Shown: positions 24,206 through 31,267 of the stretch, piece by piece
Layout of the letters: each line of letters begins with the position of its first letter
Numbering within the stretch: the stretch's first letter is position 1
Assembly: GCA_030606485.1 (NCBI GenBank)
Contig: JAUWGH010000006.1
Coordinates: 90,001-122,000, forward strand
Length of the DNA: 32,000 nt
Source of the DNA: Promethearchaeota archaeon
GTDB taxonomy: Archaea; Asgardarchaeota; Lokiarchaeia; Sigyniarchaeales; SOKP01
Direction of reading: 5' to 3'
The notes under the pieces: model-generated
Seen by the model: only the letters and a program-made list of their open reading frames with translations
What the model was told of the DNA's origin: nothing
Databases searched by the model: none
Translations under genes and position numbers: made by a program

Positions 24206-24322
24206 AGATAAAATTAATTTTTACTTCTTTTTTTTATTCTAAATTAGAATTAACCAAGTTTAAATGAAAAAGTAGTTAAAAAAATCAAAAATTTTATCTT
24301 TATTGCCACTTTTAAAATTTCA

Positions 24323-25162
24323 ATGAGTATTGAAATTATAGAAAAAGACGACCGCCTTATTCGTTTTATACTCTCAGATATATCGACTGAAATGGCTAAT
24401 GCCTTCAGAAGGATAATCTTAATTGAAATACCTGTAATGGCAATTGATGAGGTAATAATGTTAAGGAATGATAGTCCACTTTATGATGAAATTCTTGCAC
24501 ATAGACTTGCAATGATTCCAATAGTTACAGACTTAAAACATTATAATTTTCAACAAGAATGTTCTTGCGGAGGTGCTGGTTGCGCATTATGTTCAGTTAC
24601 CTTGACATGTGATATAAAAAACGATACAGATGAAACCATTCTCGTCACCTCGGGAGACTTAATCTCAAATGATCCAAAAATTGTCCCAGTAAGTCCTAAT
24701 ATACCAATTGTAAAATTAGAACATGGCTCTTCATTAACATTTGAGGCCTTTACAGTATTAGGGAGGGCTAAAGAGCACGCTAAATTCCAAAGTATTGCTA
24801 ATATTGGATATAGATTTTATCCTAAAATTGAAATTGATGAACGTAAATGTGAAAAATGTACTCAAAAATGTATAGCTTCAGATTACTGCTCAAAAAAATT
24901 ATTCGAAGTTGGAACTGAAAAAAGTAATCCGAAATTAATTCCGGATTTTTGGAAAAATTGTGATTTATGTGAAGCATGTTCTCATGAATGTCCTGAAGGG
25001 GCTATTAAGGTCGAATGGGATGATAATAAATTCATTTTTTCAATTGAATCTGATGGAGTTCTCCCATTCGGTACTCTTTTAAAAAAAAGTTGGGAAATAT
25101 TTAAAGAAAAAATTGATGATTTTAAAGAACAATTAAAAAATTTAGAAATAGAAATAGAATAA
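24323..25162 (+). CDS. rpoD: DNA-directed RNA polymerase subunit D (Rpo3) with zinc motif and Fe-S domain
   Basis: ANAFRRIILIEIPVMAIDEV..NDSPLYDEILAHRLAMIP, CSCGGAGCALC, IPIVKL, AKEHAKFQ, CDLCEACSHECPEGAI, FSIESDG. Confidence 0.96.
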   Translation: MSIEIIEKDDRLIRFILSDISTEMANAFRRIILIEIPVMAIDEVIMLRNDSPLYDEILAHRLAMIPIVTDLKHYNFQQECSCGGAGCALCSVTLTCDIKNDTDETILVTSGDLISNDPKIVPVSPNIPIVKLEHGSSLTFEAFTVLGRAKEHAKFQSIANIGYRFYPKIEIDERKCEKCTQKCIASDYCSKKLFEVGTEKSNPKLIPDFWKNCDLCEACSHECPEGAIKVEWDDNKFIFSIESDGVLPFGTLLKKSWEIFKEKIDDFKEQLKNLEIEIE

Positions 25163-25241
25163 ATTATCTAAGTAGTCATATTCATAAATTTAAAAAATAA
25201 TGCAAAATATTAAAGTTCATAAATTTTAAGGGAATTATATT

Positions 25242-25604
25242 ATGTCTCATAAACCAACGGGTCCAAGCGACTATTATAAAAGGAAATTAGCTCGGACTCT
25301 CTGGAAAACTAAGAGAAGAATCTGGAGAGATGTTTCAAAAAGAATTTTTAAACCAAGAAAGGATAAAGTAGAAGTAAATCTCTTTAAAATTAATAATAAG
25401 ACTAAAAACGGAGATGTAATTGTTGTTCCTGGGAAAATTCTTAGTATGGGAAGTCTGGATCACACGGTAATAATTGCATGTTTAAATGCATCGAAATCTG
25501 CTAGACAAAATGTAAAAAATTCCTCGACTGAAAGTAAAATTATTTCTATTGAAGAGTTATTAGATACGAATCCTAGCGGTTCAAACGTAAAAATAATTGT
25601 TTAA
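25242..25604 (+). CDS. rpl18e: 50S ribosomal protein L18e (eL18)
   Basis: IWRDVSKR, EVNLFKIN, VIVVPGKILSMG, SNVKII. Confidence 0.93.
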   Translation: MSHKPTGPSDYYKRKLARTLWKTKRRIWRDVSKRIFKPRKDKVEVNLFKINNKTKNGDVIVVPGKILSMGSLDHTVIIACLNASKSARQNVKNSSTESKIISIEELLDTNPSGSNVKIIV

Positions 25605-25624
25605 ATGGTAAAAATGAATCCATA

Positions 25625-26086
25625 ATGGTTGAATATAAATTAATAGATGTAAAAGATAAAATCCTTGGAAGAGCTTGCACTCAAATCGCAAAAAAAGCAC
25701 TTTTAGGGAAATATATTGTCGTCATTAATGCAAAAGACTGTGTGATTTCAGGTAAAAAAAATCAAATTCAAAAGAAATATTTAGAGAAGCTTAATATTCA
25801 TACTGCCACAAATCCTAGACGCGGTCCTTTTTGGCCGAGACGTCCAGATCGTTTTTTTAGAAAAATTGTTTGGGGCATGCTCCCAAGAAATAGAAGAGGT
25901 CGGGATGCACTTGCGAGAATACATGTTTATATCTCTAATATACCTGAACGATTTAAAAATCGATATCAAAATTTAACTCCACTTGATATACAAAATGCCG
26001 ACGTTTCTCGATTGCAGAATAAATTTATTCATCTTGAAACTATATGCACACGAATTGGATGGAAAAATAGAGAGGTTGAGATTTAG
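25625..26086 (+). CDS. rpl13: 50S ribosomal protein L13 (uL13)
   Basis: IDVKDKILGR, VVINAKDCVISG, GPFWPRRPDRFFRKIVWGMLP. Confidence 0.95.
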   Translation: MVEYKLIDVKDKILGRACTQIAKKALLGKYIVVINAKDCVISGKKNQIQKKYLEKLNIHTATNPRRGPFWPRRPDRFFRKIVWGMLPRNRRGRDALARIHVYISNIPERFKNRYQNLTPLDIQNADVSRLQNKFIHLETICTRIGWKNREVEI

Positions 26087-26090
26087 ATAA

Positions 26091-26498
26091 ATGGTTAAAT
26101 ATATTAATGCATCAGGTAAAAGAAAAACTGCAATTGCTCGAGCTGTTTTAAATACTGAAGGAAAGGGAGTAGTTAGAATAAATTCTGTTCCATTAGAAGC
26201 ATACGAACCGAGTATTGCTAAAGAACGGATTAAAGAATTATTTAAAATCCTTGATGAACCAAAACTTAAAGATGTTGATATAAAAGTAAAAGTTAAATCT
26301 GGTGGGATAATGGCTCAAACTGATGCTATTAGAATAGCTTTAGCAAGAGTGATTTATAAATACTTAAGGCGCAAATCCACTGCCAATTTATTTAAAGACT
26401 ATGATAGTTCATTATTAAGTGGAGATAGTCGAAGAAAAGAACCAAAAAAATTTGGTGGTAGAGGTGCCAGAGCGAGACGACAAAAATCTTTTCGATAA
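26091..26498 (+). CDS. rps9: 30S ribosomal protein S9 (uS9)
   Basis: SGKRKTAIARA, VKSGGIMAQTDAIRIALAR, LLSGDSRRKEPKKFGGRGARARRQKSFR. Confidence 0.97.
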   Translation: MVKYINASGKRKTAIARAVLNTEGKGVVRINSVPLEAYEPSIAKERIKELFKILDEPKLKDVDIKVKVKSGGIMAQTDAIRIALARVIYKYLRRKSTANLFKDYDSSLLSGDSRRKEPKKFGGRGARARRQKSFR

Positions 26499-26500
26499 TT

Positions 26501-27823
26501 CTATTTGATTTTAAAGTGTGCTCCTAATTTTTGCAAATCCTCTATAAATGTTGGATAAGAATCCTCAATGATCTCTACATTTGAAATATGGGAGTTTGAT
26601 TCTGCAAACATTGCGGCAACAATTAATGCCATGGCTATGCGATGATCATCACCATGATTTAAATCTGCCCCATTTAATTTTGTATTCTCCTTTATTATCA
26701 ATTGATCTTCATGCTCTTCTAAATTTGCTCCCATTTTTTTCAACTCTCGAGCTATTCCAGAAACTCTATCTGATTCTTTACTCCTAATATTCTTGATATT
26801 AGTTAATTTCATAACTTTATTAGTGAAACAACCCATTACTGCTAGAATTGGAAATAAGTCAGGAGTTTCCCTACAATCAATTGAAAAATCTTCTAAAGGG
26901 CTTTTATTTATTCCTTTTTTAATTTTTACCATCTTTTCATGTGGATTTATTAATATATTAGCTCCCATTTCTCTCAGATATGAAATGATCTCCCTGTCAC
27001 CTTGGGGGCTATCAAAATCCAAATTAGAAATAATAACATTAAGATCATTCTCAGCTAACGTTGCGGCTCCAAAGATATAAGCCGCTGAAGAGAAATCCCC
27101 GGGAATATCATAAACTTGACCACGATAGTTCTGAGAACATGGGATTATTAAATTTCCCATTAAACTTTTTGAAATCTCTTGTTTAATTGTGATTCCAGCT
27201 CTATCCAACATATCTAAGGTTAAATAAATATATGGATGGGATGTAAGTGGTGTAGTTAGCTCTATAATTGTAGCATCACTCCCTTTACATTTCAATAACG
27301 GTGTAATAAGTAGTAAAGCAGTTATGAATTGAGAACTAACATCTCCTGGAAGTTTTATTCTTTTAGGAATTACATTTACTGGTTTGATGCTAATTTCATC
27401 CTCATTAACCTCAATTACTGCGCCTAATTGTTTTATAGCTTCTAATAATGGTTGGATTGGACGTTTTCTTTTTAAAAATTCCCCTGTTAGTCGGATTCCA
27501 TTTTCCAATAATAATCCCAGAGCACATAGGATCCTAAAAGTTGTACCAGAATTTTTACAATCTATCGGCACTTCGGGAGCAATAAATTTAGATTTTTGAA
27601 AATTAACTAAAAATTTATTCTCCTTTTCTTTTAGAATTTTAACTCCTAAACTCTTAAGAGCATTGATTGTTACCTCCACATCTCCAACTGTTAGAGGATT
27701 ATTTATAACTGAGATTGCCTCAGCTAACCCTGCAATGAAAAAAGCTCTATGAGAATAACTTTTTGAGGGAGGAACCTTAACTTTACCGCTTAGAGTCTTG
27801 ATTGGAAATATTTCTAAGTCCAT
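26501..27823 (-). CDS. aroA: 3-phosphoshikimate 1-carboxyvinyltransferase (EPSP synthase)
   Basis: VPPSKSYSHRA, NSGTTFR, SSQFITALL, IPGDFSSA, PDLFPIL, KESDR, DHRIAMA. Confidence 0.96.
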   Translation of the reverse strand: MDLEIFPIKTLSGKVKVPPSKSYSHRAFFIAGLAEAISVINNPLTVGDVEVTINALKSLGVKILKEKENKFLVNFQKSKFIAPEVPIDCKNSGTTFRILCALGLLLENGIRLTGEFLKRKRPIQPLLEAIKQLGAVIEVNEDEISIKPVNVIPKRIKLPGDVSSQFITALLLITPLLKCKGSDATIIELTTPLTSHPYIYLTLDMLDRAGITIKQEISKSLMGNLIIPCSQNYRGQVYDIPGDFSSAAYIFGAATLAENDLNVIISNLDFDSPQGDREIISYLREMGANILINPHEKMVKIKKGINKSPLEDFSIDCRETPDLFPILAVMGCFTNKVMKLTNIKNIRSKESDRVSGIARELKKMGANLEEHEDQLIIKENTKLNGADLNHGDDHRIAMALIVAAMFAESNSHISNVEIIEDSYPTFIEDLQKLGAHFKIK

Positions 27824-27914: not shown

Positions 27915-28238
27915 TTATTCATCATCTTGAAGAAATAATTTCAATTTTTGTAATATGGTCTCAGTTGTATCATATTCTTCATCTAAATCTGGAATTTTAA
28001 TCTTTGGTTTAGATTTAGCCTCCTGTATTACAATTTCTACTCTCCTTCCTTTAAATTTGCGGTAAATATCCTCAAGCTTAGTATTTAATATAATTGCTTC
28101 CTTCTCGTCTATAAGAAAAAATAAAGTATCTTTAATCTTTTCCCAGAATTTTTGTATTTTTTCATCATCTTTTGCCCACTTTGAAATATCTCTCTTGATT
28201 AAAGTCCCCTCATATTTTAAAATCTTTTTTCTGGCCAT
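27915..28238 (-). CDS. Hypothetical protein
   Basis: Charged ORF of about 107 aa, co-oriented with both neighbours. ATG 28238 preferred to TTG 28256. Confidence 0.65.
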   Translation of the reverse strand: MARKKILKYEGTLIKRDISKWAKDDEKIQKFWEKIKDTLFFLIDEKEAIILNTKLEDIYRKFKGRRVEIVIQEAKSKPKIKIPDLDEEYDTTETILQKLKLFLQDDE

Positions 28239-28278
28239 TATTTTTCGCTCTTCCAAGATTCTATTTTAACATTAGATT

Positions 28279-29298
28279 CTATCGCCTTAGAGCACGAGGG
28301 TTCCGATATAATTTTGTTTCTTGGGCAGAGACACTCAAAAGAATTTTCCCATTTTTAAGTAATTTTCTAGTTCTTAGTAATTTATGCTTAATCGGTTGTA
28401 AAAATTTGAGCATCATTGTAAATAGTAATATTACACTCTTCAATGATTCATTTTTATATGCTTTTTCAGTATAAAATTTAACAACATACTTTCCACCTAC
28501 ATTAACAACTTTCTCATCAATTTTTGCAATTAATTTATCTTGTCCATCAAAAATATCCCAATCACTACCGATAGAGAGCACATCCTCATCAAATGTAAAA
28601 ATATCCCACTCTTTTTTCTTCTCATTCATTAAAAGTGGAAATGTATGAATTTCTCCAAATAATCTCTTTGGAAATCGCAGATTTTGCTTAGCCAAATCAA
28701 CGATATATTTGTATTTTCTAACCATCATTTTAAATTCAGGGAGTGAATGTTCTGCACCAAATGTAGATTTTAAACTATTTAAAACCATTTCCTCTATTGT
28801 ACCTTGCCAAGCAATCGAGTCGGAATCAAACCATTTAATGACTAATCTCTTTTTACAAGGATTTTCTTCTTGTTCTTCCCAATCCTTCTTCATAAAACCA
28901 AAAAATCCAACAACATCATTATCTTCCTTCACAGAACCACAAAGATCTAGGTTTTTAGGAAACTGACGGGACTTTGCCATGAGTCTCTGTTTTTGGAATA
29001 TTCCAATTTCTGGACCATGTAAACTCGTTAACCAGAAGTCAACTGTGATCTTTTTAAGGTATTTCTTTTTAGATTTCTTTGGTTTTTCAACTTTCTTCTT
29101 TTCAACTTTTGTCTTTCCTCTGGTTTCTCCGAATATTTTTTCCTCGATATAAGATTCTAAATCTTCTTCTTTTTTCTTCCTAACTGACTTCTTCTTTTCA
29201 TAATCTGGGTTAAGTCTACAATAAGGTAGATGTGAATTCAATCTCCTATATTGCCTTCCGCAATAAGGACATTTTTCAAGTTCTATAGATTTAGACAT
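28279..29298 (-). CDS. Hypothetical protein: N-terminal C2HC zinc finger, Lys-rich linker, probable Tubby/LURP-one/scramblase-like C-terminal domain
   Basis: CPYCGRQYRRLNSHLPYC at the N-terminus; beta-rich C-terminal half with SIGSDWDIFDGQDKLIAKIDEKVVNVGGKYVV and a hydrophobic helix LKSVILLFTMMLKF. ATG 29298 preferred because the track start at 29394 overlaps aroC. Confidence 0.75.
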   Translation of the reverse strand: MSKSIELEKCPYCGRQYRRLNSHLPYCRLNPDYEKKKSVRKKKEEDLESYIEEKIFGETRGKTKVEKKKVEKPKKSKKKYLKKITVDFWLTSLHGPEIGIFQKQRLMAKSRQFPKNLDLCGSVKEDNDVVGFFGFMKKDWEEQEENPCKKRLVIKWFDSDSIAWQGTIEEMVLNSLKSTFGAEHSLPEFKMMVRKYKYIVDLAKQNLRFPKRLFGEIHTFPLLMNEKKKEWDIFTFDEDVLSIGSDWDIFDGQDKLIAKIDEKVVNVGGKYVVKFYTEKAYKNESLKSVILLFTMMLKFLQPIKHKLLRTRKLLKNGKILLSVSAQETKLYRNPRALRR

Positions 29299-29356
29299 AA
29301 CTAAATATAATCCAATAATTATATTTAAATATATAATATAATACTTTAAAAAAAAT

Positions 29357-30460
29357 ATGGTTGGAAATTCTTTAGGAACACTCTTTAAAATCATTTCTTT
29401 TGGGGAAAGTCATGGGGAAGTAATTGGTGTAATCATAGATGGTTGTCCTGCTGGACTTAAGATAGATGCGGATTTAATTCAAAAAGAGTTGAACAGAAGG
29501 CGCCCCGGTCAAACAGCTTTATCTACACCTCGTTCTGAAGAGGATAAAGTTAAAATTATTTCAGGAATATTTAATAATTTTACGACCGGAGCACCAATTT
29601 GCTTAATTATTGAAAATAAAGATGTAGATTCTTCTAAATATGAGAAAATTAAGAACATATTGAGACCATCTCATGCAGATTTTTCTAGATTGATGCGTTA
29701 TGGTGAATCTGCAGATTATCGTGGTGGAGGACGATTTTCTGGAAGAATAACCGCGGGGTTTGTTATGGCGGGAGCAATAGCAAAACAAATACTATCTTTA
29801 AATAATATTAAAATTATCGCTTATACTAAAGAAATTGGTGGAATTATTGATGATAAAGAATATGATTTCAAAAAGATAAAAATTCTTCGTGATAAATCTG
29901 ATGTAGGGGTGTTGGATAATGGTAACTCTCAGAAAATCAGTGAATTAATCCCTAAAATGAAAGAGGAAAAGAATTCAGTAGGAGGTATTGTAAAATGTAA
30001 CGTGGAGAATTTTCCTGCCGGTGTAGGTAATCCAATTTTCAATAATCTCCAATCTGATATAAGTAAAGCAATATTTTCAATTCCAGCTGTCAAAGGAATT
30101 GAATTTGGAGCTGGTTTTAAAGCCGCAAGAATGAAAGGTTCGGAGCACAATGATCCATGGATCATTAAAGATGGGAAAATAAAAACCTCTAAAAATGATG
30201 CAGGTGGAATAATTGGGGGTATATCAACCGGAATGCCTATTGAATTTAATGTATGCTTTAAACCGACAGCATCAATCTCCAAATCCCAAAAGACGATTGA
30301 TATTAAGCTGATGGAGGAGACAGAACTGATAATCGAAGGAAGGCATGATCCATGCATTGTTCCTCGAGTTATCCCTGTTGTAGAGGCTATGACTGCAGTT
30401 GTTTTATTGGATCATCTCTTAATGGCTCAAAAAATTCCGCTTGTCCTTGAAGAGAAATAA
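29357..30460 (+). CDS. aroC: Chorismate synthase
   Basis: FGESHG, RRRPGQ, RPSHAD, GGGRFSGRITA, SIPAVKGIEFG, NDAGGIIGGIS, FKPTAS, GRHDPCIVPR. Confidence 0.97.
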   Translation: MVGNSLGTLFKIISFGESHGEVIGVIIDGCPAGLKIDADLIQKELNRRRPGQTALSTPRSEEDKVKIISGIFNNFTTGAPICLIIENKDVDSSKYEKIKNILRPSHADFSRLMRYGESADYRGGGRFSGRITAGFVMAGAIAKQILSLNNIKIIAYTKEIGGIIDDKEYDFKKIKILRDKSDVGVLDNGNSQKISELIPKMKEEKNSVGGIVKCNVENFPAGVGNPIFNNLQSDISKAIFSIPAVKGIEFGAGFKAARMKGSEHNDPWIIKDGKIKTSKNDAGGIIGGISTGMPIEFNVCFKPTASISKSQKTIDIKLMEETELIIEGRHDPCIVPRVIPVVEAMTAVVLLDHLLMAQKIPLVLEEK

Positions 30461-30542: not shown

Positions 30543-30770
30543 ATGCCGATAGAAGATACTTCATCGCAATTTATTGAATTTTATAAGAAAAAAGCAAGAA
30601 ATTTAGTTGAAATTGCAATGAATCATTATAAAAATAGAGAATTAAAAAAGTCTTGCGAGTTATTAAGTCAAGCATATACTTTCTATAAGAAAGCTGGTGA
30701 ATCAGATAATGCAGAGCAAGTGAAAAAAAGGTTTGAAGAGATTAAAGCCGAATTAAAGAGTGGCGTATAA
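30543..30770 (+). CDS. Small three-helix protein (TPR/MIT-like)
   Basis: 75-aa ATG ORF; KARNLVEIAMNHYKNRELKKSCELLSQAYTFYKKAG shows the small/large residue spacing of TPR/MIT helices. Confidence 0.6.
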   Translation: MPIEDTSSQFIEFYKKKARNLVEIAMNHYKNRELKKSCELLSQAYTFYKKAGESDNAEQVKKRFEEIKAELKSGV

Positions 30771-30778
30771 AAAAACCT

Positions 30779-31267
30779 TCAATCTATTTCTATCTTTTTA
30801 ATTTTAAGCAAAATATCTTCTATATGAGTTCCATACCAATATATCTTATTGCAAGTACGGTTAGAACATCGAAAAAATTCATTTATGTGATTATAAGTTC
30901 CTTTATTCACTAAATCTTTTACATCTTCTTTATTCTCTATTCTAAATAATGTATGATTACAAACGGAACATCTTGCTTTTTCGGCTTTATACTTAAAATC
31001 GTTTTTAAACCTGATTTTAATCTGTTTTAAATATCCATATACACTTTCTCCCTCTAGAAATAAACTATTTGGAGCGGCTTTTCTGCTTAATAACTTATCT
31101 TTTGTAAGAATTATTCTATTTTCTCCATTTGCAAATTTAACGAGCTCATCATCAGGAACTGGAGTGTTATTATCACTTTCTAAATCTTTAGCATAAACCG
31201 TATCATATGCGAATATTCTCAAAAAGCGAGTTAGCCTACCTAGCATAAGGTCAGTAAGAAATTTCAT
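30779..31267 (-). CDS. Mut7-C RNase domain protein (PIN-like domain plus zinc ribbon, DUF82)
   Basis: KFLTDLMLGRLTRFLRIFAYDT, RIILTKD, RCSVCN, FFRC..CNKIYWYGTH. Confidence 0.9.
   Translation of the reverse strand: MKFLTDLMLGRLTRFLRIFAYDTVYAKDLESDNNTPVPDDELVKFANGENRIILTKDKLLSRKAAPNSLFLEGESVYGYLKQIKIRFKNDFKYKAEKARCSVCNHTLFRIENKEDVKDLVNKGTYNHINEFFRCSNRTCNKIYWYGTHIEDILLKIKKIEID

Follow-up and report, generated by a model that had tools for sequence, protein, structure and literature searches.

A two-gene unit between aroA and aroC

The window analysed here, the whole stretch of 32,000 nucleotides of DNA, carries an open frame at 28279-29298 on the reverse strand whose stop-free translation gives a protein of 339 amino acids followed by a stop codon (P0001). 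This is confirmed as a protein-coding gene, well beyond chance, because its best homologues reach E values down to 2.5e-211, an exhaustive sequence search gathered 148 clusters at 50% identity and a six-frame scan found the family in 290 of 400 Asgard genomes. All of the parts that the first-pass annotation had picked out of this stretch, namely a C2HC finger, a Lys-rich linker, a beta-rich domain, hairpins and a hydrophobic helix, are present in the translation, with the Lys-rich run at residues 67-83, the hairpins at residues ~230-275 and the hydrophobic helix beginning at residue 284. The gene, its parts and its downstream neighbour are laid out as follows.

28279..29298 (-): whole gene; open frame, coinciding starts in orthologues and homologues to E 2.5e-211
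29322..29329 (-): TATA-like box tttaaata, read from the sequence, ~28 nt 5' of the ATG at 29298
29209..29277 (-): C2HC finger, residues 8-30, with ligands C10, C13, H23 and C27, from spacing, model and orthologues
29059..29208 (-): disordered Lys/Glu-rich linker, residues 31-80 (pLDDT 30-55)
28450..29058 (-): predicted Tubby-like 12-stranded beta-barrel, residues 81-283
28354..28449 (-): C-terminal helix, residues 284-315 (model pLDDT >90)
28279..28353 (-): basic tail with the motif E327...N333-P334-R335, and stop codon; columns invariant in alignment A1
27915..28238 (-): gene for a partner of ~107 aa, 40 nt 3' of the stop codon of the finger-barrel gene

An ATG at 29394 would extend the protein by 32 residues, to 371 aa, but is unlikely to be the start because it would overlap the start of the divergent chorismate synthase gene at 29357 (+), and because orthologues start at the position corresponding to 29298, without the extra residues. 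The TATA-like box is a putative promoter element and its spacing from the ATG suggests a leaderless or short-leader mRNA. Positions 28408-29023 are matched at 95-99% identity by metatranscriptome contigs of two studies, which argues only weakly for expression, as such contigs report presence in RNA libraries and are not proof of transcription. The RNA runs X23 and X24, which do not cover the gene, are uninformative either way. Judging by DNA runs, the organism lives in cold-seep and marine sediments.

The partner gene, which would encode 113 aa if the alternative start at 28256 were used, directly follows a member of the clade that carries the finger in the window and at six further independent loci, with three GTDB families represented. 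It is kept where all other neighbours differ, also follows a member of this clade that has no finger, and is limited to the clade. No Pfam match was obtained for the partner and a word-based search returned only three close homologues; its AlphaFold2 model (pLDDT 56) is unusable, and Atlas feature matches, all below 0.9, are uninformative. For the family as a whole, a comparison of 20 loci, each from a different GTDB family, and of some others revealed no conserved neighbourhood. In the window's genus, the finger-barrel gene and its partner are inserted between genes for consecutive steps of the shikimate pathway, with aroA (EPSP synthase; 26501-27823, -) and aroC (chorismate synthase; 29357-30460, +) flanking the two-gene unit. 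An unannotated ORF of 75 aa (30543-30770, +) adjoins the gene for a Mut7-C RNase-domain protein (30779-31267, -; PF01927, E 1.5e-31) that has a C-terminal Cys-rich segment. In a closed 4.4-Mb genome from a sister family (L039; G135:C1:3973681-3988721), a family member of 417 aa stands head-to-head with a ribosomal-protein block (L18e-, L13- and S9-like clusters), the same block that lies just upstream of aroA in the window (~24300-26500), and this represents residual synteny within the order.

A zinc finger joined to a predicted Tubby-like barrel

The finger has the spacing C-x2-C-x9-H-x3-C over residues 10-27 and is modelled as a beta-beta-alpha unit with a pLDDT of 84-86. Within the finger clade the window's subgroup uses Cys as the fourth ligand and the sister subgroup uses His, and this switch among orthologues argues for a real zinc site, bearing out the finger that had originally been called from the letters alone. 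From the ligand pattern, the Cys/His swap and the confident beta-beta-alpha model, we infer that the finger binds zinc. Against one unit of an animal finger array it shows 54% identity over 26 residues, with an E value of 5e-15 across the whole library. Animal-looking proteins with such arrays (P0084, P0138, P0140, P0150 and P0166) carry 4-6 tandem C-x2-C-x9-H-x3-C fingers; in one of them the array is joined to a Mab-21/cGAS-like nucleotidyltransferase, in another to a LINE-type endonuclease. A C17orf80-like protein, comprising an N-terminal finger and an ATP-synthase-subunit-f-like domain, was also matched (BLASTP 2e-12 pairwise; whole-library phmmer 6.5e-4). C17orf80 is a mitochondrial nucleoid interactor that is defined by this combination of finger and ATP-synthase-f-like domain, with the finger spaced as Cys-X2-Cys-X9-His-X3-Cys (PMC10445727). 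The C17orf80-type finger is common to Asgard archaea and animals, and so is not confined to eukaryotes.

Tubby-like barrels are found in eukaryotes, as Tub and PLSCR, and in bacteria and archaea as LOR/DUF567. An AlphaFold2 model of P0001, built from an alignment of 20 sequences, has a pTM of 0.70 and a core pLDDT of ~90, with 12 strands at residues 82-275 followed by the helix at residues 284-315. The strands are predicted to form a closed antiparallel barrel with the C-terminal hydrophobic helix within it, in keeping with the barrel around a central helix that had first been proposed. In structural comparisons the model scored 11.6 against human Tub (1s31; 184 residues aligned), 11.1 against TULP1 (3c5n and 2fim; rmsd 3.2-3.8, 160 aligned), 10.7 against At5g01750 (1zxu) and 10.5 against mouse tubby (1c8z); the next best after these Tubby-fold entries was a designed 12-strand barrel at 7.8, and all others were at or below 5.7. 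The alignments to Tub, TULP1 and At5g01750 reach model residues 299-305, so that the central helix is included. For the homologue P0016, the ESM Atlas model (pTM 0.86) neighbours structures of the Scramblase, LOR and Tubby_C_like clusters, with TM scores of 0.56-0.58. Foldseek against the PDB gave no match at E <= 0.001, with Tub as the top entry (probability 0.51, E 0.5). As a prediction, a barrel of the Tubby/LURP-one type, with 12 antiparallel strands around its own C-terminal helix, is well supported.

The conserved elements of the barrel are an excursion between beta1 and beta2 (W89...F113), R151 and the IDEK...GGK hairpin (K263, G268, G269 and K270). In the helix that follows, the first ~13 residues are hydrophobic and are predicted to be buried as the core of the barrel, the remainder is basic, and F293 is invariant. 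The linker differs in length and sequence across the family. Net charges of +10 for the linker (residues 36-80), +12 for the helix plus tail and +1 for the barrel mean that charge sits mainly outside the barrel. We found no transmembrane segment in P0001, which is best explained as a cytoplasmic protein of an unnamed family.

The first-pass annotation had proposed a barrel of the Tubby or LURP-one kind, and this stands as a predicted fold but not as HMM membership of Tub, LOR or Scramblase. For P0001 itself, Pfam and NCBIfam returned only a weak zf-C2HC_2 match (E 0.009) and left the barrel without a match, whilst a Pfam hmmscan of 70 relatives gave no match to the Tubby clan (CL0395), including PF04525 and PF03803. 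PF01167 (Tub) did not match P0001 at E <= 10 and had no match genome-wide, the control genomes likewise being without one, and neither phmmer nor profile searches of PDB sequences found a Tubby-clan chain. When alignment A1 was compared with an Asgard LOR profile, hhalign gave a probability of 5.7% and a P of 0.0067 over 154 collinear columns, in an alignment that correctly pairs the last hairpin and the helix. The sole match in a genome-wide scan of the same genome with PF04525 was a different gene (39.6 bits). Given that there is no Pfam, NCBIfam or PDB-profile match, and that the genome's true LOR gene is at another locus, we place P0001 and its relatives in a separate family, as yet without a name, of the Tubby-like fold class. 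Three close homologues of P0001 carry the precomputed Pfam label PF28519, which may denote either the finger or the barrel, and part of the protein may thus already be catalogued. The Tubby/LOR/Scramblase superfamily, with its presence in bacteria and some archaea, is itself well established (PMC2639001; PMC10584680), and Tub proper is restricted to eukaryotes (PMC2639001).

The architecture as a whole had initially been taken to be unlike that of any described protein, a claim that did not survive, since a protein combining a Zn-ribbon with a LOR domain is encoded in the same genome and such proteins are widely annotated in Asgard archaea. The copy in this genome (P0170, ~227 aa; PF13240 and PF04525) lies at G000 contig C12:44942-45382 (L027:1468-2160, -). 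In many Asgard metagenome bins it is found at 65-100% identity and is named 'YxjI' or 'LURP-one-related'. What is undescribed is only this C2HC finger on this barrel family.

Distribution of the family and gain of further modules

The family was found in 73 of the 85 Asgard genera scanned, usually as one copy per genome; this holds for both closed genomes of the sister family, of about 4.4 and 6.0 Mb. Named sources include Lokiarchaeota/Promethearchaeia, Helarchaeota, Thorarchaeota, Heimdallarchaeota and Hodarchaeales, as well as Sigyn-, Baldr-, Jord- and Njordarchaeia. P0001 is one of two copies in the window's genome; the other (P0171, contig C1) has no finger and a Lys/Glu-rich N-terminus. 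N-terminal regions are variable across the family and often rich in Lys and Arg (median K+R 26%), and only 11 of the 163 entries in the family have the finger. Common to the whole family are the barrel, the helix and the C-terminal E...NPR tail.

In a quick IQ-TREE maximum-likelihood tree, the entries with the finger form a single clade (SH-aLRT 94-99) in which four members without it are nested. A separate clade (SH-aLRT 99) has a basic linker and a C-terminal helix-hairpin-helix (HhH) domain, with HHH_5 detected at the Pfam cut-off in three members. Judged by this quick tree, modules of a nucleic-acid-binder type were gained independently at least twice. Of 72 full-length members, 65 have the NPR motif; six of the seven without it belong to the HhH clade. 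Within that clade, the linkers between barrel and HhH domain in P0160, P0162 and P0089 contain repeated basic 'RGxRKIRG'-like units, and that of P0160 holds two long, near-identical repeats. Among PDB sequences the A2 profile matched DNA polymerase IV and RAD51, but solely by way of the HhH domain that some members carry.

A bacterial branch of the family, represented by P0315 and P0063, lies on contigs of 60-70% GC, where the neighbouring genes include those for bacterial-type LeuRS, FtsY, the septation protein IspZ, DapF, LptE and LolA. A metagenome scan recovered 187 loci of this branch (including L053 and L100), and it is confirmed as one high-GC Gram-negative lineage that is common in metagenomes. 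Its loci also adjoin leuS-lptE-holA-like, yggS-like, amt, ftsK and lolA genes, and the synteny seen in the branch is with housekeeping genes only. In the quick tree the branch falls among sequences of Hod/Heimdall type, which points to transfer of the family between Asgard archaea and this Gram-negative lineage. The branch explains in part the 'Pseudomonadota' labels on Atlas clusters of near-identical fold. A full-text search of the literature on Tubby together with Asgard or Lokiarchaeota returned no paper on the family.

Possible functions and comparison with known systems

We consider that P0001 may be a nucleic-acid-associated, probably DNA-associated, factor built on a Tubby fold, a tentative reading of sequence and model to which we would give a little less than an even chance. 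In such a factor, general affinity for nucleic acid would come from the finger together with the basic linker and the basic tail beyond the helix, and specific binding, whether of DNA, a ligand or a partner, would fall to a face at one end of the barrel. That end would gather the beta1-beta2 loop, R151, the IDEK...GGK hairpin and the NPR tail, as judged from strand topology: the odd strands of a meander barrel are parallel, so that the conserved elements and the exit of the central helix should fall at one end, an argument from topology and not from coordinates. Bateman et al. pointed to conserved positive charges at two strand positions, which share one end of the barrel, and suggested that they might form a DNA site in Tubby and the scramblases (PMC2639001). 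In P0001 these same strand positions are taken by R151, immediately preceding strand 4, and by K263, immediately following strand 11. It is because of the topology and charge positions, together with two independent gains of modules of a DNA-binder type, that a nucleic-acid role is the best supported. The HhH clade is also the clade in which the NPR tail is lost, and the finger of P0001 matches the N-terminal finger of the nucleoid-linked C17orf80 type, both of which fit a nucleic-acid theme. Against DNA binding, the barrel is nearly neutral (net +1) and none of the loci compared revealed a conserved neighbour for DNA metabolism; against the link to Tubby, no sequence or profile method ties the family to members of the Tubby clan. 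C2HC fingers and Lys-rich tails are, moreover, also able to bind proteins, RNA and acidic lipids.

The function originally suggested was that of a membrane-lipid sensor. If one considers the analogy with Tubby, which binds PI(4,5)P2, the barrel might bind an anionic lipid head group whilst the finger and basic linker held nucleic acid or protein, giving a membrane-tethered factor or a tether between nucleoid and membrane. The predicted fold is indeed common to Tubby, and the basic segments could bind acidic lipids. Tubby and PLSCR1 have been proposed as membrane-tethered DNA-binding factors (PMC2639001), and C17orf80, a nucleoid-associated protein, has the same type of finger along with a membrane anchor (PMC10445727). 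However, a common fold does not show a common ligand, direct support for a lipid sensor goes no further than that fold, and the barrel has a net charge of +1. The absence of a transmembrane segment, the predicted burial of the ~13-residue hydrophobic part of the helix and the absence of membrane or lipid genes conserved alongside the gene across 20 families also speak against it. To our knowledge, phosphoinositide phosphates have not been demonstrated in archaea. We regard a lipid sensor or tether as unlikely, and a nucleic-acid role as likelier because branches of the family have added modules of a DNA-binding type. A broader proposal would cast the pan-Asgard barrel as a prokaryotic version of the 'membrane-tethered DNA-binding factor' envisaged for Tubby and PLSCR, with one end switching between anionic lipid and DNA and with fingers or HhH domains tuning affinity; this strikes us as very improbable. 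If it were true, it would place a Tubby-style link from membrane to genome, or a C17orf80-like tether between nucleoid and membrane, in the archaeal relatives of eukaryotes.

Partners other than DNA and lipid also need to be weighed. The retention of the downstream partner in three GTDB families would fit a protein-protein adaptor in which the finger and the barrel face bind proteins, with the ~107-aa product as the first candidate, and in which there is no direct role for nucleic acid or lipid. The C-terminal NPR tail resembles a short docking motif, and C2HC fingers can mediate protein contacts, as cited in PMC10445727. The partner occurs in the finger clade only, however, whereas the barrel and NPR tail are family-wide, and the independent gain of an HhH domain is difficult to account for if nucleic acid plays no part, so an adaptor is in our view distinctly unlikely. 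An RNA- or ribosome-associated factor, with the basic tails and finger binding RNA and the barrel serving as a platform, would draw upon the Lys/Glu-rich N-termini of many members and upon the same ribosomal-protein block being nearby in two families of the order (the window and L039). Against this, the synteny does not reach beyond a single taxonomic order, and aroA interrupts it in the window; DNA is the usual target of HhH domains, and HMM scans of P0001 and 70 relatives detected no RNA-binding domain; we would give RNA a slim chance of being the principal target.

Whether or not association with nucleic acid proves to be the role of P0001, the finding is a modest one, given that the fold is known, that a zinc module with a LOR barrel had already been annotated and that the function is one we infer. 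It does reveal a second Tubby-fold family that lies beyond the reach of sequence methods, mostly single-copy and present in about three quarters of Asgard genomes. The family also offers a testable handle on the old proposal that the Tubby fold couples nucleic-acid binding with another ligand.

The Tubby C-terminal domain (PF01167; 1s31, 2fim, 3c5n, 1c8z and 1i7e) has a predicted fold in common with the Asgard family at an identity of 4-6%. For the LURP-one-related/DUF567 proteins (PF04525; At5g01750, PDB 1zxu/2q4m) the family gives no HMM match, and in comparison with them it adds the beta1-beta2 excursion, inter-strand helices, the basic extension of the helix and the NPR tail. The PLSCR1 family (PF03803) belongs to the same predicted fold class (Atlas neighbours at TM 0.58); PLSCR1 too consists of a disordered N-terminal region and a barrel, and its DNA binding has been reported (PMC2639001). 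The Asgard family nonetheless gives no HMM match to PLSCR1, and a Ca2+-binding motif was not identified in it. The Cys-rich palmitoylation cluster of PLSCR1 (PMC2639001) is absent from P0001, in which the barrel has two scattered Cys residues. The N-terminal CCHC finger of C17orf80 (MTNAP1) has spacing identical to that of the P0001 finger and similar flanking residues, whereas outside the finger the two are unrelated, C17orf80 being mostly disordered with a C-terminal membrane helix. The Asgard Zn-ribbon and LOR proteins, like P0001, place an N-terminal zinc-binding module before a Tubby-like barrel, but their module is a C4 zinc ribbon (PF13240) where that of P0001 is a C2HC beta-beta-alpha finger, and their barrel is a bona fide PF04525 domain, without the Lys-rich linker, the NPR tail or the partner gene. 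In these proteins a zinc module and a Tubby-like barrel have been brought together a second time, independently of P0001.
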